Shown piece by piece: positions 4,553 to 35,530 of a stretch of DNA of 64,000 bases. The position numbers were made by a program, and so were the translations under genes. The notes under the pieces are model-generated. The model made no database searches and was not told where the DNA came from. It worked only from the letters and a program-made list of their open reading frames with translations. Each line of letters begins with the position of its first letter. Within the stretch, counting starts at the first letter, position 1. Source of the DNA: Macrostomum lignano (lineage: Eukaryota); assembly GCA_002269645.1 (NCBI GenBank), contig NIVC01000020.1, positions 434,001-498,000 of the forward strand. The letters run 5' to 3'.

Positions 4553-5335
4553 TGTTGTGTCCCGAGACGGACCAGCCAGCTACGTCTGGCGCTCTGTACG
4601 AGCAGGAAAACGCAGCCCCAGTCCTGCTGCTTGCCAACCCACTGTCGCACAAACGCGCAGGCAGTAGGCCAGCAACCAGGGTCGCAGCGAACGCACAGGC
4701 CCCGGTGACAAAGTCCTAGAGGCACTTGACCCCGAAATAACAGGAACAGAACGATACTTACTGTGGCGCGGATACTTGGCGCGCTGGGCGTCTATGTTGA
4801 AGACGATTGTTGGCACGCTTGTTTTTGGTTTATTGTCATATACTATTTGCGGCGAAGGAGTCAGAGGAGAAGCGGTCGCATGGGGGGGGGAGAGGACAGG
4901 AGCGCACGCCAATAAATATCTGCCAGCACAACATGGGGTGGGGCAAAAGCTGCAGGGTAAGCTGTAGAGAAAAGGCGGGGTGCGTAGAGAGAGTGAGCGG
5001 GGATTGGCTGCAGCCACACAAAACGCGACTGGGGGGTAGAAAACCAGAATTACAGAAAACAGCGACAGCCAATGAGAGAGCACGGAGGGGGAGGGATAAT
5101 AATAATCAGGGGTGAGAAAGTTGCAGACATAGGCTGGACAAATAAACAACTACAATAATAGTTCATCAATTGATTGGGTCTAGTGCAGTGGCACCAAAAA
5201 ATAAATAAAATACTCTAAGAAAATAGCTCACAACAAGTTGCAAGCATGGAAGGGGTGGGGAAGGTTGGCAGAGGGAGAGAGAGAGATAGAGAGACTACAG
5301 TAAGGGCAAATACATTGAGTTACGAATTCACAACA
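4553..5335 (-). repeat. 3' LTR (783 bp)
   Basis: TGTTGTG...CACAACA termini; near-identical to 15510-17299 once the nested insertion is removed; AATAAA on the minus strand at 4829-4834. Confidence 0.95.
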
Positions 5336-5348
5336 TTCTCCCCTTCTT
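5336..5348 (-). other. Polypurine tract (PPT)
   Basis: Minus strand AAGAAGGGGAGAA immediately precedes the 3' LTR TG. Confidence 0.9.
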
Positions 5349-6060: not shown

Positions 6061-6912
6061 TCACAGTTTCAACGAGTTCATGCCGCCACTCGTCGCTTCC
6101 TCGCCCAGGTCATCCAGGTCCTCTTCCTCGGCGTCCAGCACCAGGACATCCGCGTCCGCAGCAGGGCTGGAACGGCTGGGTTCCCCCGTCCCGGGTGCCA
6201 TTGGTGCCCGCCTAAAAACCTTATTGACCAGGAAGGGCCTAAAGCGACGCACTGACGCTACTAACACTCCTACACAGCGGAACTCTAGCGACTGAGCAGC
6301 TTCCCGCACCGCTCTTGATGTCGATTTGTACTCGTCGACGCTCATGACAATCTTCGAGCGGCCGATCTTTTTCGTCGCTAGATCTTTTAACCCATTCAGT
6401 AACGCTCTCTTGACCTCAGCTACCGCCTGACACGCCGAATATAAGTGCCGGATTTCCGCCATCAACCTCGCAATTTCCGATGCGTTCCCACGTAAACAAG
6501 CGCGCTTCAATTTGTTGCGGACCGCTGTATTCACCGGCTCATCTTCGCTTCCCACACTCGGCTTCCCGATCAAATGCAGTCGACTTTCCTGCTCATCCTC
6601 GGTGTCATCCTCAGATTCTGACGATATTTCCACCTGCTCAAAGTACTCAGTCGGTATTGCCATCCCAGCTGGCAGTCTCAGTCGTGACAGAAACATTTTC
6701 GGCGCCTGCGCACCCTCGGGACCAAACTGTTCGTACACGATTCGCAGAAACGGATCACTCAATACTCGATACGCTTCATTTATTTCTTGTGCCTGCCGCC
6801 GAGCGCCTGGCCCCACCTTGTCTGGATGTGCGTGACGTATGCGCTGGTAGTAAGCCTTCTTAACCTGCTGCGTGGTCGCATCAGATGCGACACCCAGGAC
6901 TTCGTAGTACAT
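6061..6912 (-). CDS. J-domain (DnaJ/Hsp40-type) protein, 283 aa, carried inside the retrotransposon between integrase and 3' LTR
   Basis: N-terminus YYEVLGVASDATTQQVKKAYYQRIRHAHPDKVG...QEINEAYRVLSDPFLRIVYEQFG matches the J-domain consensus with an intact HPD. Acidic tracts and a helical region of unknown type follow. Same strand as gag-pol. Confidence 0.9.
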   Translation of the reverse strand: MYYEVLGVASDATTQQVKKAYYQRIRHAHPDKVGPGARRQAQEINEAYRVLSDPFLRIVYEQFGPEGAQAPKMFLSRLRLPAGMAIPTEYFEQVEISSESEDDTEDEQESRLHLIGKPSVGSEDEPVNTAVRNKLKRACLRGNASEIARLMAEIRHLYSACQAVAEVKRALLNGLKDLATKKIGRSKIVMSVDEYKSTSRAVREAAQSLEFRCVGVLVASVRRFRPFLVNKVFRRAPMAPGTGEPSRSSPAADADVLVLDAEEEDLDDLGEEATSGGMNSLKL

Positions 6913-7013
6913 ACTTAAAATGAAACGGCAATTGACTTGCTAGAAGGTAGACGACTATTTAAATTCATGCACTTTTCTGCCTCCTTCATCCTGTGCGTTC
7001 GCTCCATGACTGG

Positions 7014-10000
7014 TCAGTGACGCACGGGATTACCAAAAAACTGCGTAGGGACCCGGTTTCTAACCGGGTTACGACGCTCTGGCGTGGGTGGCCTACCCGG
7101 ACTGCCAGGGACTCCGAAATCTACTGCTTCGGGTTGAGGCAGCTGCACCCAATCACTCTCGCCGTCTTCATCATCATCCTCCTCCTCGTTGTGCTCATCG
7201 AATTCCCGTTGCTCAGGACCGGTACACGTTGCCCATCTTGCTCGCTCCGTTCAGCGCGACGGTAAAGGTGCAAGTTGTTAAAGTGCACGGTTTTCCTCTT
7301 CCGGTTGTTCGTCGGGTGCCCTACCCTGTATCGAGTCGCACTTTCTCGCTTGAACACTTTCACCGGTCCAGTCCAGTACACATGGAACTTCTTTGCTTCG
7401 CCGGTCTCCAGACAAGGCTGATACACGTAGACCAGATCTCCTTCGTTGAATCCCGAACCACGAGCTCCCGTGTCGTACTGATCCTTTTGCTGTCTCTGAT
7501 ACGTTGACAGGTTGGTCCGCACGGTGTCGCCAGCTGCTTGCATCTTGCGACGTAGTTCAGCAACATATACCGTTGTTTCACTCGGCTGCACTTGAGGCGG
7601 CTTGTTCATCAGGTCAACAGGCAGTCGCATCTCCTCACCGTACACCAGGTAGTGCGGTGTGTAGCCGGTTCCTCGATGTACACTGGACCGATACGCCATT
7701 AGCACCGCCGGTATAAATTCTTCCCAACTTGACTGCGCTGCTCCATTTTCGACCATCAGGCTTCTCAAGCTGGTGCCGAGCGTACGATTAAGCTTTCCAC
7801 TTGACCGTTCCCCATTGGGTGGTACGGTGTCGTTCTTGTCTTCTTGATGCCTAGCAACGAGCACGGTTCCGTAGTTAATCTTAACTCGAAATTTCGGCCT
7901 TGATCCGAGTGCAGGAACTGTGGACATCCGTGTTGACTGATCCAGCGTTCGACAAACACCTTTGCACAGCTTGCCGCCTTCTGGTTTCGAAGCGGGTACG
8001 CATCCGGCCATTTGGTGAAAGCATCTTGAATCGTCAGGACGTACATGTTTCCTTTCCTTGTTCGTGGAAGCGGTCCGACAATGTCAACCATGACACGTTC
8101 AAATGGAGCACCAGTTTGAATCGGCTCGAGGGGTGCTCGGCCTCGCTGCTTCGTCTTTGATTTTCCGCAGGTTTTTTTTTTTCCCGAATGAACTCTTCTA
8201 CCAGTCTGCCAAGGCCCGGAAACCAAAATCGCGAGGTCACTTTTTTCTTCGTCTTGAAAAATCCGCTGTGCGCTCCACTGGCTCCACTGTGTAATTCTGA
8301 GATGACCAAATTCGTCGTTTCTGCCGTCAGAACAACTTTGAAATTCTTCTCTGTCCTGATGCACAGCAGGTCATTGACCATGCACAGTTCATCTTTTCTG
8401 GCCATCAGCGCCTTCCAGTAGGGCGTTCCTGGTCCCGGGTGCCCAGTTCCAAGCGACTCTAGTCGCCCTGTCTGCACTGCCTGTCTTAGCGGACGTAGTT
8501 CAGGATGCTTGAGCTGCGCTTCATGGACGCGTTGTTGGAGTCCCGACTCGAATGTTACTGCACCGACCTCAGGCTGCTCCTTGCAGGACGGGCACGTGGT
8601 TGCTCCAAAGCGGCTTCTCGGCCTACGTGATAACCCGTCGGCATTCCCATGGTCCCGGCCTGCTCGATGTATGATCGTGTAGTCAAAGCAGGCTAGCTGC
8701 TCCAGCCATCTCGCAGCTTGACCTTCAATATTCTTGAATGAATGCAGCCAGCGCAGACTGCTGTGGTCGGTTCGAAGAATGAAGTGCTTCCCGAGCAGAA
8801 AGTACTTGAATTGGCGAATAAAGGTGACTGCAGTGAGGAGCTCAACGCGGGTCGTGCAGTTATTCCGCTCTGCAGATGACAGGGTGCGTGATCCGTACGC
8901 AATGACTTTCTCCGACCCGTCCGGTTGCAGCTGAGATAGGACGCCTCCGATTCCCACTGACGAACTGCCATCTGTATCCAAGATGAACGGCGGTGCATCT
9001 GGAGCGAAGTTCGGGTACGCCATGACCTGTTCTCCGGTCAGCGCCTCTTTCAGCCGCTGGAAGGCTTCTTCTTGGGCCGGTCCCCACTGGAACGGTGATG
9101 TAGATCTCGTCAGTTCCGTCAACGGTTCAGCTGTGTGCGAAAAATCTTGAATAAAACGCCTGTAGTAGCCAACAGTGCCGAGAAACGCTTGCACATCCTT
9201 GAAAGTGCATGGTGTCGGCCACTCGCAAATGCTCGGACCTTCTCTGGGTCAGTTCCGATGCCGTCCGCCGAGACTCGATGACCCAGAAAGCTCACTTCGG
9301 AACTGAGCAGCTCGCACTTCTTCGGATTCAGCTTTAGATTTGCACTTCTCAGCCGCTGAAAAATTTCACTCAACCTGGCCAGATGATCTTCCACGGTGTT
9401 GGAAAAAACTAAAATGTCGTCCAGATACACGAGGCATATCTTCCAGGCCAATGGGTGCAGCACAGTTTGCATGATGCGGCTGAACGTTGCTGGGCCGTTG
9501 GTGACACCAAACGGCATCACTAGCCATCGGAATTGCCCGCGGTGCGGCACAGCAAATGCGGTCTTGTCTCGGTCTTCTGCAGCCACCGGAACTTGATGGT
9601 AGCCAGATCGCAGATCTAGGAAACTGTACACGGCTGTTCCATGTAGCGCTTCTAGGGCTTCATCGACGCGAGGTAGCGGAATGGCGTCCTTAACGGTCAC
9701 GTCGTTGACCCGACGATTGTCCACGCACATTCGAAGCGAATTGTCTTTCTTTCGCACACAGACCACTGGCGAGCTCCATGGGGACATTGCTCTTCGATTT
9801 TTCCTTGCGCCAGAAGCTCATCAAGTTGCTCGTCTACTTCTGCTCGAAGATGTGGCGGCAGTCGTCGTGGAGCCTGTTTGATAGGTCTTGCCGTCCCCGT
9901 GTCGATTCGGTGCTCACTGACATTCGTTACCGTGGCCTCGGCAAGTTCGGTTGCAAATACGTCTCTGTTGCACTGGATTAGCGCTTTGAACTTCGCCTCT

Positions 10001-10050
10001 TGCTCTGCCGACAAACCACAACTTCCCCAATTCTTCAGACCTGCTAGGAG
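7014..10050 (-). pseudogene. Duplicated pol segment (RT, RNase H, integrase), frameshifted, lacking gag and PR
   Basis: ORFs 9119-9787 (RT), 8034-9194 (RH), 7765-8364 and 7121-8011 (IN) mirror 10354-13388; the HHCC cysteines are lost at a poly-T substitution. Confidence 0.9.
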
Positions 10051-10252
10051 CACCCTCGGGACCAAACTGTTCGTACACGATTCGCAGAAACGGATCACTC
10101 AATACTCGATACGCTTCATTTATTTCTTGTGCCTGCCGCCGAGCGCCTGGCCCCACCTTGTCTGGATGTGCGTGACGTATGCGCTGGTAGTAAGCCTTCT
10201 TAACCTGCTGCGTGGTCGCATCAGATGCGACACCCAGGACTTCGTAGTACAT
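9914..10252 (-). pseudogene. Truncated second J-domain ORF fused out of frame to the pol linker
   Basis: Identical to the first ~68 aa of 6061-6912, then switches at the duplication junction. Confidence 0.85.
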
Positions 10253-10353
10253 ACTTAAAATGAAACGGCAATTGACTTGCTAGAAGGTAGACGACTATTT
10301 AAATTCATGCACTTTTCTGCCTCCTTCATCCTGTGCGTTCGCTCCATGACTGG

Positions 10354-13300
10354 TCAGTGACGCACGGGATTACCAAAAAACTGCGTAGGGACCCGGTTTC
10401 TAACCGGGTTACGACGCTCTGGCGTGGGTGGCCTACCCGGACTGCCAGGGACTCCGAAATCTACTGCTTCGGGTTGAGGCAGCTGCACCCAATCACTCTC
10501 GCCGTCTTCATCATCATCCTCCTCCTCGTTGTGCTCATCGAATTCCCGTTGCTCAGGACCGGTACACGTTGCCCATCTTGCTCGCTCCGTTCAGCGCGAC
10601 GGTAAAGGTGCAAGTTGTTAAAGTGCACGGTTTTCCTCTTCCGGTTGTTCGTCGGGTGCCCTACCCTGTATCGAGTCGCACTTTCTCGCTTGAACACTTT
10701 CACCGGTCCAGTCCAGTACACATGGAACTTCTTTGCTTCGCCGGTCTCCAGACAAGGCTGATACACGTAGACCAGATCTCCTTCGTTGAATCCCGAACCA
10801 CGAGCTCCCGTGTCGTACTGATCCTTTTGCTGTCTCTGATACGTTGACAGGTTGGTCCGCACGGTGTCGCCAGCTGCTTGCATCTTGCGACGTAGTTCAG
10901 CAACATATACCGTTGTTTCACTCGGCTGCACTTGAGGCGGCTTGTTCATCAGGTCAACAGGCAGTCGCATCTCCTCACCGTACACCAGGTAGTGCGGTGT
11001 GTAGCCGGTTCCTCGATGTACACTGGACCGATACGCCATTAGCACCGCCGGTATAAATTCTTCCCAACTTGACTGCGCTGCTCCATTTTCGACCATCAGG
11101 CTTCTCAAGCTGGTGCCGAGCGTACGATTAAGCTTTCCACTTGACCGTTCCCCATTGGGTGGTACGGTGTCGTTCTTGTCTTCTTGATGCCTAGCAACGA
11201 GCACGGTTCCGTAGTTAATCTTAACTCGAAATTTCGGCCTTGATCCGAGTGCAGGAACTGTGGACATCCGTGTTGACTGATCCAGCGTTCGACAAACACC
11301 TTTGCACAGCTTGCCGCCTTCTGGTTTCGAAGCGGGTACGCATCCGGCCATTTGGTGAAAGCATCTTGAATCGTCAGGACGTACATGTTTCCTTTCCTTG
11401 TTCGTGGAAGCGGTCCGACAATGTCAACCATGACACGTTCAAATGGAGCACCAGTTTGAATCGGCTCGAGGGGTGCTCGGCCTCGCTGCTTCGTCTTTGA
11501 TTTTCCGCAGGTTACACAGCATCGAATGAACTCTTCTACCAGTCTGCCAAGGCCCGGAAACCAAAATCGCGAGGTCACTTTTTTCTTCGTCTTGAAAAAT
11601 CCGCTGTGCGCTCCACTGGCTCCACTGTGTAATTCTGAGATGACCAAATTCGTCGTTTCTGCCGTCAGAACAACTTTGAAATTCTTCTCTGTCCTGATGC
11701 ACAGCAGGTCATTGACCATGCACAGTTCATCTTTTCTGGCCATCAGCGCCTTCCAGTAGGGCGTTCCTGGTCCCGGGTGCCCAGTTCCAAGCGACTCTAG
11801 TCGCCCTGTCTGCACTGCCTGTCTTAGCGGACGTAGTTCAGGATGCTTGAGCTGCGCTTCATGGACGCGTTGTTGGAGTCCCGACTCGAATGTTACTGCA
11901 CCGACCTCAGGCTGCTCCTTGCAGGACGGGCACGTGGTTGCTCCAAAGCGGCTTCTCGGCCTACGTGATAACCCGTCGGCATTCCCATGGTCCCGGCCTG
12001 CTCGATGTATGATCGTGTAGTCAAAGCAGGCTAGCTGCTCCAGCCATCTCGCAGCTTGACCTTCAATATTCTTGAATGAATGCAGCCAGCGCAGACTGCT
12101 GTGGTCGGTTCGAAGAATGAAGTGCTTCCCGAGCAGAAAGTACTTGAATTGGCGAATAAAGGTGACTGCAGCGAGGAGCTCAACGCGGGTCGTGCAGTTA
12201 TTCCGCTCTGCAGATGACAGGGTGCGTGATCCGTACGCAATGACTTTCTCCGACCCGTCCGGTTGCAGCTGAGATAGGACGCCTCCGATTCCCACTGACG
12301 AACTGCCATCTGTATCCAAGATGAACGGCGGTGCATCTGGAGCGAAGTTCGGGTACGCCATGACCTGTTCTCCGGTCAGCGCCTCTTTCAGCCGCTGGAA
12401 GGCTTCTTCTTGGGCCGGTCCCCACTGGAACGGTGATGTAGATCTCGTCAGTTCCGTCAACGGTTCAGCTGTGTGCGAAAAATCTTGAATAAAACGCCTG
12501 TAGTAGCCAACAGTGCCGAGAAACGCTTGCACATCCTTGAAAGTGCATGGTGTCGGCCACTCGCAAATGCTCGGACCTTCTCTGGGTCAGTTCCGATGCC
12601 GTCCGCCGAGACTCGATGACCCAGAAAGCTCACTTCGGAACTGAGCAGCTCGCACTTCTTCGGATTCAGCTTTAGATTTGCACTTCTCAGCCGCTGAAAA
12701 ATTTCACTCAACCTGGCCAGATGATCTTCCACGGTGTTGGAAAAAACTAAAATGTCGTCCAGATACACGAGGCATATCTTCCAGGCCAATGGGTGCAGCA
12801 CAGTTTGCATGATGCGGCTGAACGTTGCTGGGCCGTTGGTGACACCAAACGGCATCACTAGCCATCGGAATTGCCCGCGGTGCGGCACAGCAAATGCGGT
12901 CTTGTCTCGGTCTTCTGCAGCCACCGGAACTTGATGGTAGCCAGATCGCAGATCTAGGGAACTGTACACGGCTGTTCCATGTAGCGCTTCTAGGGCTTCA
13001 TCGACGCGAGGTAGCGGAATGGCGTCCTTAACGGTCACGTCGTTGACCCGACGATTGTCCACGCACATTCGAAGCGAATTGTCTTTCTTTCGCACACAGA
13101 CCACTGGCGAGCTCCATGGGGACATTGCTCTTCGATTTTTCCTTGCGCCAGAAGCTCATCAAGTTGCTCGTCTACTTCTGCTCGAAGATGTGGCGGCAGT
13201 CGTCGTGGAGCCTGTTTGATAGGTCTTGCCGTCCCCGTGTCGATTCGGTGCTCACTGACATTCGTTACCGTGGCCTCGGCAAGTTCGGTTGCAAATACGT

Positions 13301-14273
13301 CTCTGTTGCACTGGATTAGCGCTTTGAACTTCGCCTCTTGCTCTGCCGACAAACCACAACTTCCCCAATTCTTCAGACCTGCTAGGAGCTCCTCGGCCGC
13401 CTCACTCTCTTCTTGGCGAGGCTTTTCCAGTGTCGGAGCTGCATCCTTGGCTTCACTCAACGTTGCTAGCGCGATGAGCTGCAGCAGATCGAGCGGATGG
13501 TACCACGCAACTGTCTCGCCCTTGCGGATGGTGACAGGAACCTCCGAGAAGTTTGCCAGCCGTACGGGGACTCGAGCGTCTTCCGTGGGCATCACTAAGG
13601 ACCTCGCTAACACCGCGGAACCTGCGCGCTTCCGGTCTTGACTTTCCTCAATTACTCCTGGGCTTCTCGTGCATCGTCCTCTTCCACCCTTCATTAAGAA
13701 TCGACCAGATGCTATCTTCTCTGCTCCAGGCGGAACCACAATTCGCTCCGACGCTAGAATGCGACACACAGTCGCAGGCCGTTGGTGAAAACGTAGCGGA
13801 ACGCTGGCATCTGCTAGGTGAAGTACACCATCTTGAAAATCGATGCGGCAGTTGTGCTTAAGCAGAAAGTCGGCTCCCATTAACAGCTCGTAGGAAACCG
13901 ACGAGGATACTAGAGCTGTTATACTCAATTCGCTCTCGCCTATCATTAACGGAAGTTGGCAGATCGCACTGATGTTGATTGGGCTGCCGTTGGCAGCATG
14001 GATTGTTGATTTATGAGGCTGAATACTCGGTGGCGATTTTGTCCAAGTCTTTCTCACTCTCTGAAGCAAAGCTTCATTTATGATCGTCACAGCAGCGCCC
14101 GAGTCGACACATGCAGAGACCACCTGACCACCGATTTGACAGGACACGTACACACTGGTGGGATGCATCATCAGACTTGGTGTGTCGACCGGCTGCTGAC
14201 TGGACGGGGGAGGCTTGGCTGACTGGATTAGAGGCCCTGGCTCCCCTTCCCAGGACCTCTGTTGAAGTTTCCC
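10354..14273 (-). CDS. pol: Gypsy Pol (protease, RT, RNase H, integrase) with several single-base frameshifts
   Basis: VDSGAAVTII (PR); SPWSSPVV, LDLRSGYHQV and YLDDILV (RT); ILDTDGS and ILRTDH (RH); H..H..C..C, VDIVG, HSDQG, NGQVE and WTGPVKV (IN). Frame breaks near 13125, 12535, 11150 and 10540; the tail RRNPVRNRVP...PVRH ends in a stop at 10354. Confidence 0.9.
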
Positions 14274-15333
14274 GACCGACAATTCTTGGCCAGATGACCC
14301 GGCTGGTTGCACGCGTAGCAACGCCTCGGACCGCCGGTCCTCGCCGCTGGGTTTGACTGCGGTTGCTGCATCATTCCGGAGCGACTCGGGCACTCGCGCG
14401 CTAGGTGGCCGATGTTTCCACACTGAAAGCAAGCACCGGCCTGCCTCTGCTGCTGCCCTGCCAGATGACTAGGGGTCGCGCCATACACGCAGGCCCCTCT
14501 GCCACCTTGCAACCCAGGCCCCGGGCCGCGCGAACGCGCAGACCCAGAAGACAAGGGTGCAGCAGACTGTTGAGGAGGCGGTGCCTGATTCAGCCGCTTC
14601 AACTGCCCTTCCAGGTCTCGAATCCGTTGTTGAAGTTCTTCTAATCCGTCTGAACTGGTGCCTCCGGTATTCACCGCACCAACGGTCGAAGCAATTTTCC
14701 GGTAAGCCTGTTCTGAACCTGTCGGCTTGGCGGCTCGACCGGCGGCCTCCTTTCGTCGCACGCAACGAACCGCATCCGTAAGGGTGGCGGGTTGCTGCAG
14801 CATAACGTACTCTTTGACATGTTCCGGTGCTCGAATGCCCTTCTTGAAGCGGTCTCTGGCAAAGCTGTTGATGATTCCGACTGGCATGTCTTCATCTGGG
14901 TACGCGTTCCTTGCTAACTCTAACAGCACATCCGCATAAGTCTCATACGTCTCGCCCTCTTTTTGGACTCGCGACTCCAGCTCCAGCTTGAAATCCTCGG
15001 CCGTGCGGTGCTGCTGGAACCTTTCTAGGAGTGCATCGGTGAAATCATCATACGTGGCACCCTCCTCCAGCTGAATATTCTCCACTGCCGCGAAAGCCGT
15101 ATTTAGATCCAAGAAGCTGAGGAGATGAGGCCGGCGATCGTCTTCCACTATCTGCGATGCTTCACAATAGGCATTGAACCTCTGCAACCATAGCCTGAAA
15201 TTATCTCCAATGAGTACTTCGGGGGCTTCGCTGGCCGCTGTACATTCTGTGCCACGTTGATGTCCTGCTGCAACGCCCGACGAACTGACGCCGACATTAA
15301 CTCCACCAGTCTATTCACACCTTCGTCTCCCAT
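14228..15333 (-). CDS. gag: Gypsy Gag with two CCHC zinc knuckles (one frameshift near 15215)
   Basis: MGDEGVNRL... joins ...LQRFNAYCEASQI; CFQCGNIGHLAREC and CYACNQPGHLAKNC. Confidence 0.88.
14267..14273 (-). promoter_or_regulatory. -1 ribosomal frameshift slippery heptamer G GGA AAC (gag to pol)
   Basis: Gag frame TCG GGA AAC (S-G-N) and pol frame GGG AAA CTT (G-K-L), just after the second zinc knuckle; canonical X XXY YYZ phasing. Confidence 0.8.
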
Positions 15334-15490: not shown

Positions 15491-15508
15491 ATCCTGGTCA
15501 CGGCACCA
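15491..15508 (-). other. Primer binding site complementary to the tRNA-His 3' end
   Basis: Minus strand TGGTGCCGTGACCAGGAT one base after the 5' LTR; its complement ATCCTGGTCACGGCA-CCA is the 3' end of invertebrate tRNA-His(GUG) as I recall it. Confidence 0.8.
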
Positions 15509-15509
15509 A

Positions 15510-17299
15510 TGTTGTGTCCCGAGACGGACCAGCCAGCTACGTCTGGCGCTCTGTACGAGCAGGAAAACGCAGCCCCAGTCCTGCTGCTTGCCAACCCACT
15601 GTCGCACAAACGCGCAGGCAGTAGGCCAGCAACCAGGGTCGCAGCGAACGCACAGGCCCCGGTGACAAAGTCCTAGAGGCACTTGACCCCGAAATAACAG
15701 GAACAGAACGATACTTACTGTGGCGCGGATACTTGGCGCGCTGGGCGTCTTTGTTGAAGACGATTGTTGGCACGCTTGTTTTTGGTTTATTGTCATATAC
15801 TATTTGCGGCGAAGGAGTCAGAGGAGAAGCGGTCGCATGGGGGGGAGAGGACAGGAGCGCACGCCAATAAATATCTGCCAGCACAACATGGGGTGGGGCA
15901 AAAGCTGCAGGGTAAGAGAAAAGGCGGGGTGCGTAGAGAGAGCGAGCGGGGATTGGCTGCAGCCACACAAAACGCGACTGGGGGGTAGAAAACCAGAATT
16001 ACAGAAAACAGCGACAGCCATGAGAGAGCACGGAGGGGGAGGGATAATAATAATCAGGGGTGAGAAAGTTGCAGACATAGGCTGGACAAATAAACAACTA
16101 CAATAATATTCCTTTTTACGTTCTATCTGACAAAAACTGCAACCAATTTGGCCACGGCTCAGCCTGACGCAGCCGCAGCAATTTTCCATAGACAGCCACC
16201 GCTAGCGGCAACCAATCTGGCAAAAACTGCGAGCTATTCCGCCAGCTTGAAGATAGCAGCTCAATAGCATAACAATAACGATAAAGAATGTTAACAATAC
16301 ATGCACGAAGTCAGAACATTATGTCCTCAGCATTCAAGCACCGATTGAAGTACGTCTGGGAATGGTTGATCCAGCGCAGGCACTTGAGAGGCGTGATGCA
16401 GTTCAGTGCTTGCTGCACTTCTCTCTTCAGAATGCGCATCCTGTGCTGATGCAGTGTCGCACCTGCTGCAGCAGCCAGTCCAGTATCTGCCACCTCGCGC
16501 TGAATGGCAGGTGATTGCAATTGCGTTTTCAGCTTGGCCTTCAGCGCTGAGCCTGCGTACTCCGCCGGGTTGATGAACGGCGAGTATGGAGGCAGGAATC
16601 GGTGAGCATGACCTTCAGACATCCCAGGGACACCTAGGTGAGCGCGAGCCCCATCGGACAGTAGCACAAACTCCTCTTCCATCAGAACATCGATCTCAGA
16701 GAGGAATTCCATGAAGTGCTCGTTCGAATTGAACAATGGTGTCCACCATAGCCTCCGTCAGCGCCATCCTCTTCACTCCTCCTTTTGGCAGAGTGCCAAC
16801 TCTACCAGTTCGTTCATACGTGGTCACGATGTTCCTCACTGTCGGTTTCTTCATCCCCATCATTCTGCCAAGCTCTCCCCAGTCGTCACCACTCCTGTAC
16901 GCTCTCACGATTCGCTCTCGATCCAGCTGACTTATCTTTTGGTACGGCCCACGATTCGCCATCAGAGCAGCTGCTATCTTCAAGCCGGCAAAACAGCTCG
17001 CAGTTTTCACCAAATTGGCTGCCGCCAGCGGTGGCTGTCTATGGAAAATTCTATGTCTATGGTCAGGCTGAGCCGTGGCCAAATTGGTTGCAGCTTTCAT
17101 CAAATAGAACGTAAAAAGGTATAGTTCATCAATTGATTGGGTCTAGTGCAGTGGCACCAAAAAAATAAATAAAATACTCTAAGAAAATAGCTCACAACAA
17201 GTTGCAAGCATGGAAGGGGTGGGGAAGGTTGGCAGAGGGAGAGAGAGAGATAGAGAGACTACAGTAAGGGCAAATACATTGAGTTACGAATTCACAACA
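15510..17299 (-). repeat. 5' LTR, interrupted by a 1013-bp DNA transposon
   Basis: 15510-16108 plus 17122-17299 match the 3' LTR. Confidence 0.95.
16109..17121 (-). mobile_element. Internally deleted Tc1/IS630-like (DDE_3) transposon nested in the 5' LTR
   Basis: TA duplication (16107-08 and 17122-23); ~150 bp imperfect TIRs (TTCCTTTTTACG.../...CGTAAAAAGGTA); HTH MANRGPYQKISQLDRERIVRAY...; C-terminal LLSDGARAH...LPPYSPFINPAE; the central catalytic region is missing. Confidence 0.92.
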
Positions 17300-18015: not shown

Positions 18016-18516
18016 TCAAACTGTGCTCTCGAGGCTAACAATTTCATACCTGTCACCACTGTGGCACTCCTCAGTGATTCCAACACTGTATATGCCACAG
18101 AGTGCTGCAATGGCGGCTCCAGTGCCAGCAGCCGCTGTTCCTGACAGTCCAGCTGCTCCAATGCTCTGGCGAACAGTCACAACAAATGGGGTGATGCCTC
18201 CTCCGAAAGCAATTCCACCTGGTTGAAATCCAAGCAGACCAGCAGCCCAAGGTGCAGCAAAAAAGGATCCAACAGCAGCTGCTCCTCCAGCAGCAAGGCA
18301 TGCTCCTGCTTTCCAACCATTGTAACCTGAGTGAGCAACAACAATGCAGAAGGCCAAATGTAAAGCCATGCGAAGATAGCCTTGTTGCAGGCAAGTGCAA
18401 AGATTTATTGAAAAGGTGGACTTACATATTTTTACTTTTTTGTTGTCAGCTAAACATGGTGCAAGTTGGATAGAAACCAGTAAAGCCAAAACTAGAAGCA
18501 CTTTAGCTGACTGCAT
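18016..18516 (-). CDS. IFI27/IFI6 (ISG12 family)-like protein copy A, exons 18426-18516 and 18016-18326, 133 aa
   Basis: Hydrophobic signal-like N-terminus MQSAKVLLVLALLVSIQLAPCLA; GTAAGT...CAG 99-nt intron, phase 1; Gly/Ala-rich LLGFQPGGIA-FGGG...QSIGAAGLS; AATAAA ~75 nt after the stop. Confidence 0.8.
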   Translation of the reverse strand: MQSAKVLLVLALLVSIQLAPCLADNKKVKICKSTFSINLCTCLQQGYLRMALHLAFCIVVAHSGYNGWKAGACLAAGGAAAVGSFFAAPWAAGLLGFQPGGIAFGGGITPFVVTVRQSIGAAGLSGTAAAGTGAAIAALCGIYSVGITEECHSGDRYEIVSLESTV

Positions 18517-19305
18517 TTTTGTTAACTCTAAAAGTTTTTGAAAAATATAATATATAGTTATATATTAATATTTAACAAATGAAAATCAGCCAAGCACAAA
18601 TACTGCATGATTTAATATAACCTTATAATAATGTTCAGATGCATACTTGATATATTCTAGTTAAAAACTTATTTGAGAATGTTTTCTAAATTATTTTTTA
18701 TTTAGGCATCGAAAACTAAGAACACCGAAAAGTGGGATATCAAAATACCTAGAGTAGAACTGAAAAATATGGCCATAGATACCAAAAAAGTTTGAATTGT
18801 ATTCTTTCAGAAATGTTTATTTATTCAGGAGCACAGACAATTATTTGAATGCATATTTTAATTCATCATACTTTCAATTACAGTTCAACAGTAAAGTAAA
18901 TAGTGATTCATATGAGTGAATTTTTAATGTTATTTTTCACACTTTAACTATCCTTTTTTCCTTCTGTATAAAAAACGATCATTTAGCTAGTTCTTTTTTC
19001 TTTCGACTATCCAACTATTTAGCTATTCATCCATTTTGTAATTCAAGTGTATACGCAGAATAGGCCAATGTTTGAACTTCTGTTCATTGCAATTATTGGA
19101 TAAAAAGCTCGTAAATTCATATTCTTTTTTGAATTAAAAACCAGCGCAATATGAAACTTACACTGAATGCGGTGATTAATGATGAAATGAATTTTTAGTG
19201 AAGGTAAAAACCTACTAAATAAAATCGAACGAACGAACCTCTGAATATACACTGTACGTCCTGCACGTTCGTGGACCTCTCACGTGGTTTAAAATATCGA
19301 GCTTC

Positions 19306-22300: not shown

Positions 22301-24226
22301 ATGTGCATGTGCAGTGTCTTTTACCTACATTTTTGTTTGTCTCTGTTTCCTGCATGCTCTTTCGCATTTTTACACCTCGCACATCCTCATTTTTCTCAAT
22401 TAACAAGTGAAATCTTTTCTTAAAGACTAATTGCTATTTTAGTTAAGCTAGTAGGTTTTTGGTAATTAAATAATTCAATTTTGTCTATTTTCCAAAAAGT
22501 TTCAAAAAATGAATGAATTAAAATAAATTTGAATTATTTTAAGTTAATTGGAGTAAAATGTCTAATAAGTAACTATGATTTTTTATTTTAAGTACATGTA
22601 GCTTTGGTATAAGTATTAATGTAATGAGTACTTAAAGTAAAATCAAGCAAGTTATAGTTTTCAGAAATTATGCTACAAATAATCAAATATATACTAGTAT
22701 CTGAATTCCTTTATTAAGGAACATGCAGTCGATATTAAATCCACAATGTGCTTTTTGGTGTTCAAGGATGGTTCCCTGACTTTTTCTATTATTAGTTAGA
22801 TTTTATTATATTTAATGTAAAAATGAACAATTCTATTCAAGGTAAAAATGAAAATTCTTTATTTGTCGAATCATCTTGCCTTTGAAAAGATACATAGTGA
22901 AAACTTGATTTTTAATTCAACCTTTCAAGACTTATTTAGACTTCTCAATTCAGTGATTAGTTAAACTGATCGAAGTTCTTTCGAGTGCATGCTATAATAA
23001 TTTCGCACTTTTTCGCACACGATAATTTTAAATGTCTGGGATTTAGAGCAGAGTAACAAAATGCTGTGCTCAAAAACATTTCCTTTGTCAATTTCTTGTT
23101 CTTTTATTTTTGCAAAAGAAATTTAACTGCATATTTAAAATAAAAATGGAAGAAAATTTTATTTTCTCTTTAATATTTTTGTCGTTTATTTTCCGCAACA
23201 AAGAATAACAAATAGCCTTGATTTCTTCTCAATTTCAAGTTTTCTTGTGGTTTTAGTAGCAGCTTCTTACAGAAATTGTCAAAAGAATTTTTTTTGTACG
23301 ATTATTGGTCGATGTATAAACTTTTTTTGCAATAACAAAAAGTTGTGACCTAGCTTTGAGAACGACCCTGATGTAGTATCCGAATAATAGTATATAGGAT
23401 TAGAGCATTAATGTTGTAATATTATAAATAGAGCTCTTTTCTAACTGAATTCCGATAAGAAATTTTCACAACACATCGAATCGAAACATTTAATTTGTAG
23501 CTTTATCCACTATGACAGCGCAGCACATACATGCAGCAAGTATTGATGCTTAGTTGGAAATTTTCAATTACTAAATTGTGTGATGACAACAAAAGCAACA
23601 CGATGCTTTGGTGCTTAGTTCCCAGAGACCACTACAGAATACCGCTGGTTACTTTCCAAACCATGCACAAATCCAAGTAAGTTTTTGCAAAAGAGCTAAT
23701 TGCTGTGTGAAAGAATGCCTGCACCATCCTGGGTAGTATTTCTCTGTACTAAAAACTGTACTAAAGAAACAGAAAGCTGTGAACATGCAGACAAGGACAA
23801 TTTAAGTAGAAGGACGCAACACTCGAAATGATCTATGGTAAAAGTTTTGAAGGCAACTTTTCACCGAAAAATGAACTACAGAGATAGGAGGTTTTTTTCG
23901 GCACAAAAATTGTTATTGCTTTCGATAGGAGAAAGACCCAATGTTCATCTTTTGATACGTTGTGCCTTTCTTATAGCTCTATTGATATTCAAAAAGCATG
24001 CATTTTGTTCAGAAAATTATTATTATATGTTACATTTTGATTCTACGTACATTTGCATGTCTCCTGTGCCTAAAAAACCATTAAAACTCATTGGTTCAGC
24101 TCATTGGTTTTATGATTCCATTTTGTCATTCTTAGCTGACTGTGTAACAAATATTTGTAACAGAGATGATAAAATAGATTCATAAAACCAAAGATTGGAG
24201 CTGTGCCATGCATTTTTATGATTTTT

Positions 24227-27200
24227 AGGTACAGAAAATCCTGGTTGCAGTCCCGCATCCAGAAGGTCAGCCAGCGTACGCCATCACGCAAGGGACCCAA
24301 GCATGCGGCACTGCAGAGATCCGGCGCAGAGATACGGTGCGTCAACTGCGGGAGGGCCGGGCACGCCGCCCGAGCCTTGGAGTGTCCAGCGAAGGACAAG
24401 ACCTGCTTGCACTGCCACAGGATCGGATACCTTAAAGCTTGCTGCCGACAGCAACGCCAGGTTCGCACCGTAAAGGACGAAGACGACGAGCCATTCGAAG
24501 TGTCTGCAGTAGAATATGAATATGAAGAGTCGCTCCTTAACTTCGCGACGTGCAGCATTGCTGACATTGACGTCAGGCTCCTATTGGACACGGGCTCAAG
24601 AGTCAACATCATCAACGAGAAGACCGTGAAATGCCTGCCGAAGCAACCCGTCATCACGCCGACTCCGAAGCAGCTAGCTGTTCTCATACACAGGCTCTGC
24701 AATTGACGTGCTCGGGACCGCAGAGCTGTGCGTTGTGCACCGCGGCAAGTCCGCCGTCTGCCGCTTCTTCATCGCTCGACGAGGTGCCAACATCCTCGGT
24801 CTGGACGGCATGGACAAGCTGGGATTCTCAATCCGAGTCAACGCAATCAGCAGCATCGATGATATCGCTGGAGAGTTCCCGGTAATCTTCGACGGCATCG
24901 GTATGGCCAAGAAGGTTTGCCATCGACCACAGCTGCGCCAGGATGCAACACCGACAGTTGAGTCGCTGCGCCGGGTGCCGCTGGCACTTCAGGACCGCGT
25001 GAAGGACGAGCTAAGCAAGATGGAGGCTGCAGGTGTCATCGAGAAGATTGATGCCTCTCCCTGGGTGTCCAATCTAGTCGTATCCAAGAAGAAGAATGGC
25101 GACCTGCGACTGTGCGTTGACCTGCGCAACTGCAACCAAGCAATCAACCCGGATAAGTTTCCCATGCCGACCCAGGAGGAGCTGGCCGCAGAGTTTGCAG
25201 GCGCGCAGATCTTCAGCAAGCTGGACCTGAAGCAAAGCTACCTACAGATCCCACTGCACCCCGGCAGTAGGCAGCTGACCGCGTTCATCACTCACTGCGG
25301 GCTCTACCAGTTCACGAGGGTTCCATTTCTGGACCATTCTGGACCATTCTGGACCATTCTGGCCGACATCAAGGGTATCCGGCACTCAGAGGACGACATC
25401 GTCATTCACGGCGTCAACTCGGACGAGCACGACAAGCGGCTTTAGGCAGTACTCGAACGTCTCAGCGAAAACGGGGTGACGCTGAACAAGGAGAAATGCC
25501 AGATCGGCGTCCCGGAGATCGTGTTCTTGGGCTGCAGGATCTCAGCCGATGGAGTTCGACCGTCTAAGTCTAACATCGAAGACGTGCTCCGCATCCCGGC
25601 ACCGACTACAGCACGGGGAGTCTCGTCATTCCTGGCAACCGTCAACTACTTCGCCAAGTTCATATCCGACTTCGCTAAGACAGCGAGACCACTGCGATAG
25701 CTGCTCAAGAAGGACACCGTCTTCCACTGGACGAGCGAGTGCGACGCTGCTTTCGCTGAGCTTAAGCAACAGCTGACGAGTCCGCCAGTGCTAATCCACT
25801 TCGACTGCAACGCTGACACCATCGTCGAGTGCGACGTGTCTGACTTCGCGCTTGGCGCGGTGCTGCTTCAACGCGTAGGCGAGTCAGAGAAGCCGGTGGC
25901 CTACGCCACGCGAGCACTGACGCCAACGGAGTCCAGATACTCAGCTAGCGAGAAAGAGGCTCTGGCGTGCATCTGGGCTCTCGAGCGCTGGCACATCTAT
26001 ACCTACGGCAGACGGCTGACTTTGCGCACTGACCATTTGGCTCTCAAGACACTGCTGTGTACCCACCCAAGGCGCCGGGCACAAGCTGCTGCGCATCCAC
26101 CGATGGAACGACCAGCTCCTGCAGTACAACTTCAGCGTCGAGTATAAGCCTGGAAAGGACAACGTTGTGCCAGCCTTCTTGTCCCGTTTCGAACGACCAC
26201 CTGAGTCGACAGACAGCGGCGATGACGACGACGAGATGGCCGATATCCACCAGGTGCTAGACAGAATTCTATCAGCCGAGCTGCTGAACAAGCACTCGCA
26301 GGCCGATCCGCTCATTCGCAGTGTCTCCGCAAAGCTTCAAGCCAACTGGAAGGGGCCGCCAGCAGATGAGGAGAAAATCTTCTTCAAGCTCCGAGACGAG
26401 ATGTCAACGGTCGGAAGCTTCCTGGTTCGCGGAAACCGCGCGGTTGTGCCCGAGAGTCTGCGCGCCACTGCACTAGCGCTGATCCACCAGGGACATTGCG
26501 GCATCATCATGATGAAGCACCGAGCTCGCGATGCGGTCTGGTGGCCGGGAATCGACGCCCAACTGGAGCATCTGGCCAAGTCCTGCGTCAGCTGCTGCCT
26601 GGCGGAGAAGTGGAAGTGACCCGCTGCTCCATCGCAGACGACCGAGTAACCCAAAGAGCCATGCACACGATTTAGCTGGACTTTTTCGGCGAGATCCACG
26701 AAGCGCCGGCCAGCAGCCGATTTGCAATCGTTGCCATTGACCTGTACTTCAAGTGGCCAGAGATTCGGACTACGGCTTCAGTGACGGCCGAGGTCATCGC
26801 CGACTTTCTCAAGGACCTGTTCGCTCGATGGGGACTGCCAGGCAAGATCGTGACCGACAACGGGCGGCAGTTAACCAGCCACGCCTTCGATGAGTTTCTA
26901 GTCAGCCACGGTGTGCAGCGCGCGAGGACCTTGCTGTACCATCCACGGTCAAACTCGAACGTCGAGCGCCTCAACCGCACCCTGAAGGAGTCGCTGAAGC
27001 CTGAAGGCGCACCTTAAGGACGGCATCAGCTTCAAGGAGGCAATCTGCGAGTTCCTGCAATGCTACCGGTCGACAGCGAATGCAACCACGGGCCTGACGC
27101 CGGCTGAGCTGATGGTCGGTCGGCCGTTTCGAGGACCTCTGAGCCAGTGGAGCCGAGGCATCCGCCCCCTGAGTCAAACGGTGCCATCGGGGACCGAGCG

Positions 27201-27870
27201 TCGAGTCCAGGCCAACAAGGAGAAGGCCAGGCTGGCCACCGACCGGCGCCGAGCAGCCCGACCTTCGCGACTGTGGGTTGGCGACTCCGTGCGCGTCCGC
27301 AGGCCATAGACGGCTCACAAGCTAGCGACAAGGCTCGGCGAGACTCGAAGGATCACCCGGCGGCTGGGCCGAGTCCTGGCTGCTAAACGACGGCACGCGA
27401 TGGCACTCTGACAACCTGGTTCGTGTTCCGAGTACAGCGTCAGTGGACAGCGACACGACCGATGCCGGACTCGGTGCTCTGATAGCGCCAACACCAGCGC
27501 CAGCGCTAGCGCCGCCGGCAAGGGCGCCTGCCAACGAGACGCCGCCGACTCCGCCGAGACGAAGCGGCCGAACAAGAAGAGCTCCCATCCGGTTCAGCCG
27601 GAGTTGATCCGCGAACTGAATGATTTTTTACTGTGCGCACTCTATGGACTGTTGTGTTCCCCATGTGTTGCTTCTCGTTGCTTTTCGAGGGGGGGGGATT
27701 TAAAAAAGAAAAATCAAAGCATTGACGAAGGTAGTTCGTCGGGGGTGATGTTGTGCATGCGACTTGTACGCCGTTTAGTGTTCTTGCTTTCTGATTGGCT
27801 GGGGGGTTTGTCTGTCTGCCCAAAACGGCCTAGGGGTTGATGTTTGCTGAGTCATGCTGGTTAGTAGTTT
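24227..27870 (+). mobile_element. Degenerate, 5'-truncated Ty3/gypsy (Mag-like) retrotransposon
   Basis: Gag knuckles CVNCGRAGH..C and CLHCHRIGY..C; PR LLDTGS; RT SPWVSNLVV and FSKLDLKQSYLQIPL; RH VECDVSDFALGAVL; IN GHCG...CVSC, DNGRQL and VERLNRTLKE. In-frame stops and frameshifts. A probable PPT/LTR start GGGGGTGA|TGTTGTG at 27749; no 5' LTR in the window. Confidence 0.9.
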
Positions 27871-28251
27871 AACTATAATATAAGTGCGCCCAGGCCTTTC
27901 AAGCCTTTGTGACTTTTTCTACCCTGCAATCGCTTCTCGCATCTTATTCATTTGGCCACGCTGCCTCAAAGTACAATAGGTCTGCCTCCTATCAAAAGCA
28001 ATAACAATTTTTGTGTTGAAAAATTAAAACTTCCCATCTCCGTAGTGTATAGTTCGGCGAAAAGTTGTCTTCAAAACATTTACCATAGATTTCGAGCGTA
28101 GCGTCCTATATATATGTTACTTGAGTATTCCTTGCATGCAGATATTTATAGATACATGTACATGCATGACAACATTAAGTGATGCAGCAGGGGTCCGAGC
28201 CACATTAAATTTTATTTCTGTTTTTGGTCCCAATCCGGAAATCCAAAAGTC

Positions 28252-33040: not shown

Positions 33041-34097
33041 TTAAAAGTTTATTCAGTGAAAGTGATAAAAAATTCTCGTTATTTTTTAAGCATCCCTACT
33101 TAATGCTTCGTACATTGTAAATGTGGGGAATCGGAATAGACTCAATTAATGGTATAGGATTGAGCCTGTGTAAAACGTAACGTACAGTATGAACTTTTGG
33201 CGCCACAATATTTTATCCGCCTCTAGATGTCAACAGCAGCAACAGCGGCAGGGGCAGCAATGAAATCGTCAAGCCACAGCTCGCGGGCTCGGCGGCAGCA
33301 ACGTTGACATCACCAAAGCCATGGCCTGTCTGAACAAGGAATGAACTGGCCTATCCACGCCCAGACCGGGGTTACAACAATTACAACGAAAAGTGCACAT
33401 AAGCAAAAAGTGCGGATATTAAAATGATAAATTATTAATTTATTAACTAGATCAAATTCATTATTAAAAAATGATAACAGTATTCAATCTTTCAGGGCAA
33501 AAAAACATGCACACATTATAAAGTACAAAATCGAATAAATCACAGGTAAGAGCACTGGAAATGGCATATGCAAGCTAGGAGTTTCAAAAGTTTGTAGAAA
33601 GCGTTCCTCTCCCAAAAGACAGCACGGCACACGAGCGCAGCACATTGAGGCTTCTGGCATCAAAGCCGGTGAGTTTCTGGTTACTTTCACCAAAATCAAT
33701 TAATGAGCAGCTAAATTTGCTCAAAGAAGCCAATTTTACCTGGTGCTTCAAAAGCTGTGTGCAGCGCATGAGGAAGTGCATCGAAGTCAATGGGGATTGC
33801 ATTGAGAGACTGGATTGAGGTGCTGGTGTCTGAGGCAATGCCCACTTTGAATATCTGCTTAATTTTCATCGTCTTCTACAAACGTTTAAAACACCGTCAT
33901 ACTACATGTGTAATAAATCACTTTAAAAACTACGCAAAAATCAATGTTGTTTTTAACCATTGCAATTGATTATATCTAAAGACAGAAAACACTACCACAA
34001 AGCCAAAAATTAATCAGGCAGTTTATTAAGTTAAACTTCACCTTACTGTCCGTTATAGGTTATACCATATCACAGCACAAAATAGCATTGGTGCTTC

Positions 34098-34621
34098 TTA
34101 AACTGTGCTCTTGAGGCTAACAATTTCATAGCTGTCGCCACTGTGGCACTGCTCTGTGATTCCAACATTGTATATGCCACAGTATGCTGCAATGGCGGCT
34201 CCAGTGCCAGCAGCCGCTGTTCCTGACAGTCCAGCTGCTCCAATGCTTTGGCCGAGAGACACAATGAATGGGGTGATGCCTCCTCCGAAAGCTTGCATCC
34301 AGGCTGCAATTGAGCCAGCGGCAATTCCACCTGCTTTAAATCCAAGCAGACCAACAGCCCATGGTGCGACAACAAAGGACCCAGCAGCAGCTGCTCCTCC
34401 AATAGCAAGGCATGTTCCTACTTTCCAGTAGTTATAACCTGAGTGAGTAACAAGCATGTAGAATGTAAAGCCATGCAAGGAGAGCCTTGTTGCAGGCAAG
34501 TGCAAATATTTAGTTAAAAAGTAGACTTACAAGTTTTCACTTTTTTGTTGTCAGCTAAACATGGTGCAAGTTGGATAGAAACCAGAAGAGCCAAGACTAG
34601 AAGCACTTTAGCTGACTGCAT
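34098..34621 (-). CDS. IFI27/IFI6 (ISG12 family)-like protein copy B, exons 34531-34621 and 34098-34438, 143 aa
   Basis: Same signal exon; 92-nt GTAAGT...CAG phase-1 intron; full ISG12 motif LLGFKAGGIAAGSIAAWMQAFGGG...GQSIGAAG. Confidence 0.85.
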
Positions 34622-34942
34622 TCTTGTCAATACTGAAAGTTATTGAAAAATCAATAAATAGTTATATATTTAACAAATGAACATCAGCCAAGCATAGACA
34701 CTAATTGCACTTGATTTACTATAATGTTCAGAAGCATACTTGATATACTCTATTTACAAAACTGATATACTTTATTAAAGCTTATTATAAATTTCTATCA
34801 TTTCTTCATTTCATTTGCACATGTCTCTATTTAGCTTGTACTCTGTTTTCTCTTGGGCCTCTATATCCAGTTCAATCTTTGGATTCTTGTCTTTTCCCCT
34901 TGCTGCCTTCTGGTTGGTTGTTTAATCTAAAATCTTGCCTCT

Positions 34943-35014
34943 TTAGGCTAAACATGGTCCAAGTCGGATATAAACCAGAAGAGTTAAAATGAGAAACACT
35001 TTAGCTGACTGCAT
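34943..35014 (-). pseudogene. Third, truncated copy of the IFI27-like signal-peptide exon
   Basis: MQSAKVFLILTLLVYIRLGPCLA followed by a TAA stop; the upstream acceptor context is shared. Confidence 0.7.
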
Positions 35015-35530
35015 TTTTGTCAATTCTAAAAGTTATTTTAAAATATAGAAAATACATTTATAAGTTATATTTTAATAACAAATATAAAGAGTAGCTTTCT
35101 AAATATATATACAAACAAAATTTAATTTGAGTCAAGAAGAGAGTTAGGACAATTGATAAAATGGTGTGTAGTATATGGAGAAGGAAAGGCAGGAGGCATA
35201 GGCCTACTTGATATATTCTAGTGGGAAAAACTCTAATATAGGCCTATTCATTTAATTTTTATTCCCATTCTGTTATTCATCTTTATTATCTGCAGCAAAA
35301 GACATACAAAAAAAACATATAAAAAACTAAATTTCAAACATTCTGGACAAGTAAATTCTGTTAATTCAAAGTAAAGTCATAGCACAACATTAAACTTACA
35401 CTGGGTGCGGTAAGTACTGATATTTTTAACGAAGGTAAAACCTTGAAATAAAAACGAACGAGTATATGCAAAGAGTACGTCTCGCAGATAGCGGTCTTGT
35501 CTTGCCTCGTGAGCCCGCTCTATATATATC

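Follow-up and report, generated by a model that had tools for sequence, protein, structure and literature searches.

What is a J-domain protein, a co-chaperone of Hsp70, doing in a gypsy LTR retrotransposon at the position that env occupies in errantiviruses? The window analysed here is a stretch of 64,000 nucleotides from the flatworm Macrostomum lignano (contig NIVC01000020.1, positions 434,001 to 498,000 of the forward strand). A preliminary description of it had proposed that one of its elements carries a third open reading frame, ORF3, that encodes such a protein, is expressed from a spliced subgenomic RNA and redirects host Hsp70. The element has gag, a protease-RT-RNase H-integrase region, LTRs, a primer-binding site (PBS), a polypurine tract (PPT) and a target duplication, and is thus of the Ty3/gypsy type. 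Its parts are as follows.

4553-5335, minus strand: 3' LTR (TGTTG...CAACA), followed by the target duplication AAAT
5336-5348, minus strand: polypurine tract, recognised from the sequence
7014-14468, minus strand: pol region with protease, RT, RNase H and integrase in that order, frameshifted and partly duplicated in the window copy
14228-15333, minus strand: gag, with a capsid-like region and two CCHC zinc knuckles
15491-15508, minus strand: primer-binding site, recognised from the sequence and common to the related lineages E, H and K
15510-17299, minus strand: 5' LTR, interrupted by a Tc1-like DNA transposon at 16107-17123, with the AAAT duplication upstream
6710-13396: internal tandem duplication of 3.35 kb (6710-10059 and 10050-13396, 99.6% alike)
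10252-10050, minus strand: second, truncated ORF3 start within the tandem duplication, repeating the first ~67 codons

The two LTRs are 98-99% alike with AAAT at both flanks, and pol ends at 7014, both as first described. The primer-binding site is presumably of the tRNA-His type. The window element is a damaged copy, with frameshifts in pol, the duplication and the split 5' LTR, in which ORF3 is intact. The 3.35-kb tandem duplication may be real or may be an assembly artefact; the peptide at its junction is also present in database protein P0007, and no matching joint is listed for the four sequencing runs aligned to the element. Integrase follows RNase H in the ORF3-carrying elements, an order from which Gmr1 proper differs in the position of its integrase, and by Pfam the window element has no chromodomain at the integrase end of the kind that marks chromoviruses.

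Several other features of the window are noted in passing. The transposon within the 5' LTR is Tc1/mariner-like, with inverted ends of ~155 bp and helix-turn-helix and DDE_3 pieces in two frames. Inverted ends of ~115 bp flank a 4-kb GC-rich block at 23831-28090, likely another DNA transposon, and a tandem array with a 20-bp period and more than 100 copies occupies 39380-42000. A 182-codon frame on the minus strand at 18016-18564 has a hydrophobic N-terminus, a Gly/Ala-rich stretch and no Pfam match, and sits in a repeat that is seen again at 33500-35100.

ORF3 itself is organized as follows.

6061-6912, minus strand: ORF3, 283 aa, with its ATG at 6912 and open throughout; J-domain, acidic linker, basic five-helix domain and disordered tail
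6733-6909, minus strand: J-domain, residues 2-60 (PF00226, E 6.8e-17), with fold matches to solved J-domains
6820-6828, minus strand: HPD motif, residues 29-31
6541-6636, minus strand: acidic linker, residues 93-124, predicted to be disordered (pLDDT under 50)
6217-6552, minus strand: conserved basic helical domain with five predicted helices and a net charge of +11, defined by profile score and model

The frame is uninterrupted over 283 codons as had been proposed; its start had been placed at 6942, which is an in-frame stop upstream of the ATG. The presence of a J-domain with its HPD is borne out by the Pfam match and by an AlphaFold model of the window protein, in which the J fold (pLDDT 81-95, rmsd about 1-2 Å to most solved J-domains) has four helices with HPD between helices II and III. 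The DnaJ family is the only one that Pfam finds in the window protein, and the G/F region, zinc finger and DnaJ C-terminal domain of class A and B proteins are absent by Pfam both from it and from four further full-length ORF3s, in agreement with the first reading for G/F and zinc finger. The ORF3 profile matches solved J-proteins over positions 1-74 only. The acidic tract and unrecognised helical region described after the J-domain are both present (the linker of sister copy L031 has a net charge of -11 in 30 residues), and the helical domain matches no known family, nor any fold above background.

The position after pol, and the spliced expression that we predict below, are shared with env (ORF3) of errantiviruses such as Drosophila gypsy. 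Unlike errantivirus env, ORF3 of the window's clade has no signal peptide, no transmembrane segment and no env family match. No 19-residue window exceeds a hydropathy of 1.1 in sister copy L031, consistent with the lack of signal peptide and membrane span reported earlier; a hydropathy scan of eight ORF3 proteins detects no transmembrane segment (highest 19-residue values 1.0-1.5), and Pfam returns no env family for ORF3. An env identity is rejected on these grounds.

The frame is not peculiar to this copy. A search of the M. lignano genome with the window protein gives at least 127 matches, of which 40 were sampled as 10-kb stretches; 13 of these are host DnaJ genes and 27 are element-type J reading frames, of which 22 immediately follow RT or integrase in the same orientation. 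Searches of the same genome with C-terminal parts of ORF3 added a lineage with a degenerate J-domain. The expectation that many copies would have the frame at the same position holds: at least seven lineages carry ORF3 after pol, namely A (that of the window, with three further ORF3 copies), B, C/D, E, F, G and H, and the RT of the other carriers is 55-64% identical to that of lineage A. Paired LTRs with a 4-bp target duplication are found in 34 of 76 copies, at 33 distinct sites, the copies being drawn from 10-kb stretches such that many without paired ends exceed the stretch or are truncated elements. ORF3 is open from start to end in 12/13 copies of B, 13/16 of C, 15/18 of G, 10/12 of H, 3/6 of F/F2 and one of the three non-window copies of A, counts that are biased to intact copies as the loci were found through ORF3. 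Copy number, clade structure and the dN/dS values given below speak against both a single capture and neutral cargo, and the two are rejected.

A tree of RT-RNase H (22 rows, four short rows dropped, midpoint-rooted and with a small outgroup sample) places all ORF3 carriers in one clade, with support of 98/98, against four outgroup rows. The ORF3 tree has the same deep split, E and H versus the rest, and its branches to A and H are long. No trace of ORF3 is found in any of five outgroup loci, nor in any of four loci of lineage K, the sister of H and otherwise, by its Gag and RT, a typical member of the clade. As judged from these sequences, there is one origin of ORF3 in the clade, with later losses. 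The losses are of several kinds: L132 and L136 have lost nearly all of ORF3, L143 and L144 retain only half of a C-terminal part described below (TatD), and L134 has a decayed J remnant. The LTRs of deletion copies L132, L143 and L144 are 99.5-99.9% alike, and recently inserted copies without ORF3 have LTRs that are 98.7-100% alike. Insertion therefore does not require ORF3 in cis.

The history is also one of exchange. The pol genes of subfamilies G and G2 are 92% alike and their ORF3s 69% alike, a mismatch that points to module exchange and limits the congruence of the trees to deep levels. Patchwork identity of 64-99% along the element in L143, L042, L047, L070, L083, L040 and L127 reflects recombination among families of the clade.

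Two unusual loci deserve mention. In L033 (G000:C506), a member of family A, a 1775-bp deletion fuses RNase H in frame to the J-domain; the resulting 1099-codon frame is annotated as P0012, and the joint is present in three of four runs. L059 (G000:C575) has an intronless reading frame of more than 1400 codons with a J-domain at its start and no pol nearby, and there are four or five near-identical genome copies of this type.

Is ORF3 maintained by selection? By the Nei-Gojobori method dN/dS lies between 0.15 and 0.34, which fits purifying selection and not neutral drift, the ratios being rough as several dS values are near saturation. Seven subfamily pairs give 0.15-0.32 with upper bounds of 0.22-0.52; among the values are 0.24 for F/F2 (bootstrap 0.12-0.43), 0.20 for F/F3, 0.23 for C/D, 0.15 for G/G2, 0.24 for B/B2 and 0.32 for two lineage H pairs (upper bounds 0.49-0.52). 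For E1/E2 the N-terminal part is saturated and the TatD part gives 0.13. Within the window's own family the estimates are 0.22 (0.04-0.79), 0.34 (0.12-0.92) and 0.32 (0.04-1.66), and pol, as a control, gives 0.07-0.51. All 12 J sequences drawn from six lineages (A-G) retain HPD, encoded by differing codons, as do all five related database proteins. These comparisons all point to purifying selection acting on J-domain and helical domain alike.

This bears on one alternative, that ORF3 is a piece of a host DnaJ gene, captured and retained without any function. Repeated loss or deletion of ORF3 and the lack of a transcript junction in four runs would suit such a passenger, as would the third reading frames of rotifer elements, which in the available part of their description show no clear departure from neutrality (PMC5408684). 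We give the passenger reading next to no credence, however, since dN/dS is well under 1 in every subfamily pair, with synonymous sites near saturation, and since a helical domain that has no match among host genes is kept in all lineages.

The layout common to all lineages is a J-domain, short helices, an acidic linker and a C-terminal domain of ~115 aa. The window's copy of this last domain is the most diverged, scoring 19.0 bits against a leave-one-out profile, a value reached by none of 1000 shuffles. The AlphaFold model of the lineage G domain has five helices (pLDDT 90, pTM 0.83), and the model of window ORF3 has five that match them. A Foldseek search with the domain gives a best E of 0.27, not above background; a VIA search gives a best Z of 8.1 (rmsd 2.1 over 79 residues), in the range common for helical bundles; and a feature search and a comparison with M. 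lignano genes return, respectively, no match above background and no host gene. Its net charge is +6 to +17 in 14 of 14 rows, next to a strongly acidic linker.

In a profile search covering 1.84 billion representatives, the full ORF3 layout is confined to M. lignano records and five database proteins (P0008-P0011 and P0013, with cluster member P0155) whose helical domains share 19-57% identity with that of lineage G; two scans of metagenome data and one of viral data found no match that would give the genomic context of these proteins. Word-based protein searches return only generic J-proteins and M. lignano's own copies. A tree built on 76 columns from 15 J-domains of element type and 12 of the host is without resolution, and no donor of the J-domain is named from it. 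NCBI lists a 328-aa protein of lineage C, with an identical start, as a hypothetical 'J domain-containing protein', and many gene models of that name in M. lignano are transposon cargo rather than host chaperones.

Further modules are added in some lineages; the window protein has neither of them. In lineage C/D a chromodomain (PF00385, E 1.4e-12), with Swi6 and Chp1 as its closest solved relatives, is inserted in ORF3, after the pol stop. Lineages E and H have a TatD fold appended to ORF3, matched to PF01026 in E. All three element sequences have substitutions at three metal-binding His/Glu/Asp positions that the host TatD exons conserve, and the Glu of the GE motif is kept; the fold does not have the make-up of an active TatD nuclease. 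A role in the nucleus, on nucleic acid or chromatin, is suggested by the chromodomain, the dead TatD fold and the basic helical domain; the basic charge of the last also fits contact with RNA in a cytoplasmic capsid or nucleocapsid.

A Swi6-like chromodomain, together with a basic domain and a dead TatD fold that could bind DNA, also suits a factor of the pre-integration complex, by which ORF3 would tether cDNA and integrase to chromatin, as chromodomains do in chromoviruses, and Hsp70 would dismantle the complex after strand transfer. We regard this as distinctly improbable: the chromodomain is found in only one of seven lineages, and copies that lack ORF3 have inserted recently, as their LTRs attest.

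Lineage H (L071-L082) is an observation in its own right. Its 558-aa ORF3 combines the helical domain and the TatD-like fold with a J-like region that lacks HPD, yet its insertions are young, with LTRs 99.2-100% alike and, as noted, ORF3 mostly open. The spread of lineage H without HPD makes the helical domain, not the J-domain, the constant core of ORF3, and the lineage is a natural test of an ORF3 protein without Hsp70 recruitment. Its loss of HPD and the recent insertions without ORF3 speak against an essential role of ORF3.

How might ORF3 be expressed? Four sites are relevant in the window copy.

6914-6925, minus strand: putative splice acceptor, recognised from the sequence, its AG one base before the ATG and its position kept across lineages
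ending at 6940, minus strand: second candidate acceptor AG
15712-15718, minus strand: putative splice donor in the 5' LTR, ~208 nt before the LTR end
4755-4761, minus strand: copy of the putative donor in the 3' LTR

The AG sites upstream of the ATG end at 6940 and 6914, where they had been placed. The motif YTNCAG is found within 20 nt before the ORF3 start at 8 of 12 loci, versus 80 of 1743 background windows; in lineage B it lies just outside the 20 nt, and in A, D and F an AG stands 0-1 nt before the ATG. Lineage E has no ATG at ORF3 and has TG after the acceptor, and four E donors end in A; a start codon would then be formed at the splice junction, a parallel to env of Drosophila gypsy, in which it is formed in this way. 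In subfamilies B and B2 an in-frame ATG precedes the LTR donor by 8 and 7 codons, the donor phase fits the acceptor, and B2, from which B differs to near saturation at synonymous sites, has no ATG at the J-domain. YTNCAG, CAG and GTRAG are splice motifs of M. lignano itself, according to the available text of PMC8629364. The candidate LTR donors were picked by eye, and GTRAG, which chance alone yields about once per 500 nt, is equally common on the antisense strand of the same LTRs.

The proposal of a spliced subgenomic RNA thus stands in part: conserved acceptors and fitting donor phases speak for it, and on the other side no splice joint into ORF3 appears in contigs of four runs aligned to an intact A copy, a weak test, as the runs are presumed to be RNA, depth is 5-15, the family is of low copy number and contigs drop rare forms. 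The contigs of these runs pass straight from pol into ORF3, and the only joint shared across runs is a deletion that is also present in a likely DNA run.

Trans-splicing is a second route to consider, and the spliced leader of M. lignano ends in ATG, as stated in the available text of PMC8629364. The leader ATG would be in frame only where AG directly precedes the ATG (C, D, F and G); in A, B, E and H translation from it would run in the wrong frame. Trans-splicing is therefore rejected as a general route, and we infer that cis-splicing is to be preferred.

A plausible scenario, which we favour tentatively and with slightly less than even confidence, is that ORF3 is a nuclear factor that is made from a spliced RNA and recruits Hsp70 to the RNA or chromatin of the element. 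Splicing would join the LTR donor to the acceptor before ORF3, and the protein is predicted to be located in the nucleus. There the basic helical domain would attach the protein to RNA or chromatin of its own element, and the J-domain, if its conserved HPD is a guide, would recruit or stimulate host Hsp70, which would remodel the complexes that silence the element or retain its full-length RNA. ORF3 would act in trans, like HIV Rev or CERV of the Cer1 element. Action in trans would explain the continued spread of the deletion copies, and a gene that is dispensable in cis yet conserved has the profile of a trans-acting regulator.

A related proposal, possible but on balance doubtful, is that the clade has built a modular Hsp70-targeting machine, in which a new helical core and a captured J effector are joined by swappable readers (chromodomain or dead nuclease) that aim Hsp70 at silenced chromatin or retained RNA. 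If true, this would be the first case of a transposon that encodes its own co-chaperone and uses it against silencing or for export.

Other targets of Hsp70 have to be weighed against the nuclear factor. Viral J-domains are established, as is the use of Hsp70 in capsid assembly and in hepadnavirus priming, and ORF3 might likewise be a cytoplasmic particle chaperone, gripping Gag or packaged RNA while Hsp70 assembles or opens the virus-like particle or activates RT. A J-domain conserved under selection agrees with this, as does a basic domain that could hold packaged RNA, and a chaperone role has been suggested for plant third reading frames in the available part of PMC7264820. We nevertheless consider a particle chaperone unlikely: a chromodomain is of no use in a cytoplasmic particle, and HPD is gone in the spreading lineage H and the whole frame in K, which has Gag and RT typical of the clade. 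Gag assembly and RT activation, which had been put forward as the tasks of the recruited Hsp70, find no support in the present data.

Trans action, dispensability in cis, swapping among families (G/G2) and module gain also resemble the habits of counter-defence genes, and ORF3 could be a decoy that diverts Hsp70 from the loading of small RNAs into PIWI/Argonaute proteins or from a restriction factor bound by the helical domain. In the available text of PMC8616336, host J-proteins of plants take part in transposon silencing, in keeping with this. The dN/dS values show steady purifying selection and no fast adaptive change in the tested pairs, and we see only a slim chance for the decoy.

LTR retrotransposons borrow host chaperones; this clade encodes the chaperone adaptor itself, kept under selection across at least seven diverged lineages. 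ORF3 is a defined protein with a new folded domain in which Hsp70 redirection by a transposon can be tested, in a host where transgenesis and RNAi are possible and for which a comparison series is at hand: J with HPD, J with chromodomain, J with dead TatD, HPD lost and ORF lost.

A different tie to heat shock has been reported in the same host, where LTR retrotransposons have heat-shock promoter elements, as set out in the available text of PMC12801592; their link is through the promoter, unlike that of the ORF3 clade. A three-unit heat-shock element, with up to one mismatch allowed, is found in none of 13 clade LTRs and in one of three outgroup LTRs, and a heat-shock promoter link is rejected for the ORF3 clade. 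The outgroup case, L146:986-1325 (oriented), is a gypsy family whose 340-bp LTR has a perfect three-unit element; it probably belongs to the heat-induced families already published. The heat-regulated transcripts of PMC12801592 include six DnaJ rows, for which a tie to ORF3 could not be made, and no chromodomain accession or TatD rows; its main text has no occurrence of DnaJ, J-domain or ORF.

A described gypsy family with a J-domain ORF3, of which the preliminary description knew none, is likewise not found in the literature searched; Repbase, Dfam, GyDB, bioRxiv supplements and an earlier classification paper to which PMC12801592 refers lie beyond that scope and may list the domain. Literature on Macrostomum, retrotransposons and DnaJ together yielded nothing, term searches of a survey of metazoan env elements (PMC13524379) and of a review of large transposons (PMC6431247) give no J-domain ORF3, and PMC8616336 and PMC12924346, in the parts available, concern host J-proteins. 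Non-env third reading frames are known as a kind: rotifer Juno and Vesta have DEDDy exonuclease and GDSL esterase ORF3s (PMC5408684), and sense additional reading frames occur in plant gypsy elements (PMC7264820), in both cases as given in the available text. The J-domain form is the one without a prior description in the literature searched. As far as the available text of these two sources goes, the likeness lies in a sense-strand frame between pol and the 3' LTR, a host-type domain and family-specific gains and losses; the M. lignano ORF3 differs in joining a J-domain to an unmatched helical domain and in its clear selection. 'DnaJ' and 'TatD' have no occurrence in the available text of the rotifer paper, nor has 'DnaJ' in that of the plant review.

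Among proteins, the polyomavirus T antigens, which are viral J-domain proteins, and class C host J-proteins resemble ORF3 in having an N-terminal J-domain with HPD and a client-binding domain, without G/F region or zinc finger, and differ in that ORF3 is borne by a retrotransposon.

The nearest described case appears to be CERV of the C. elegans element Cer1, a spliced, nuclear LTR-retrotransposon protein needed for export of the genomic RNA (PMC10309623), the two being compared by description, from the available part of that paper, and not by sequence. No J-domain is described for CERV in that text, its exons are shared with gag, and it is essential for RNA export, whereas ORF3 has been lost in some lineages. 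Both are accessory proteins of gypsy-type elements, made from a spliced RNA (predicted for ORF3), with unmatched helical domains and the catalytically dead fold of a host enzyme.
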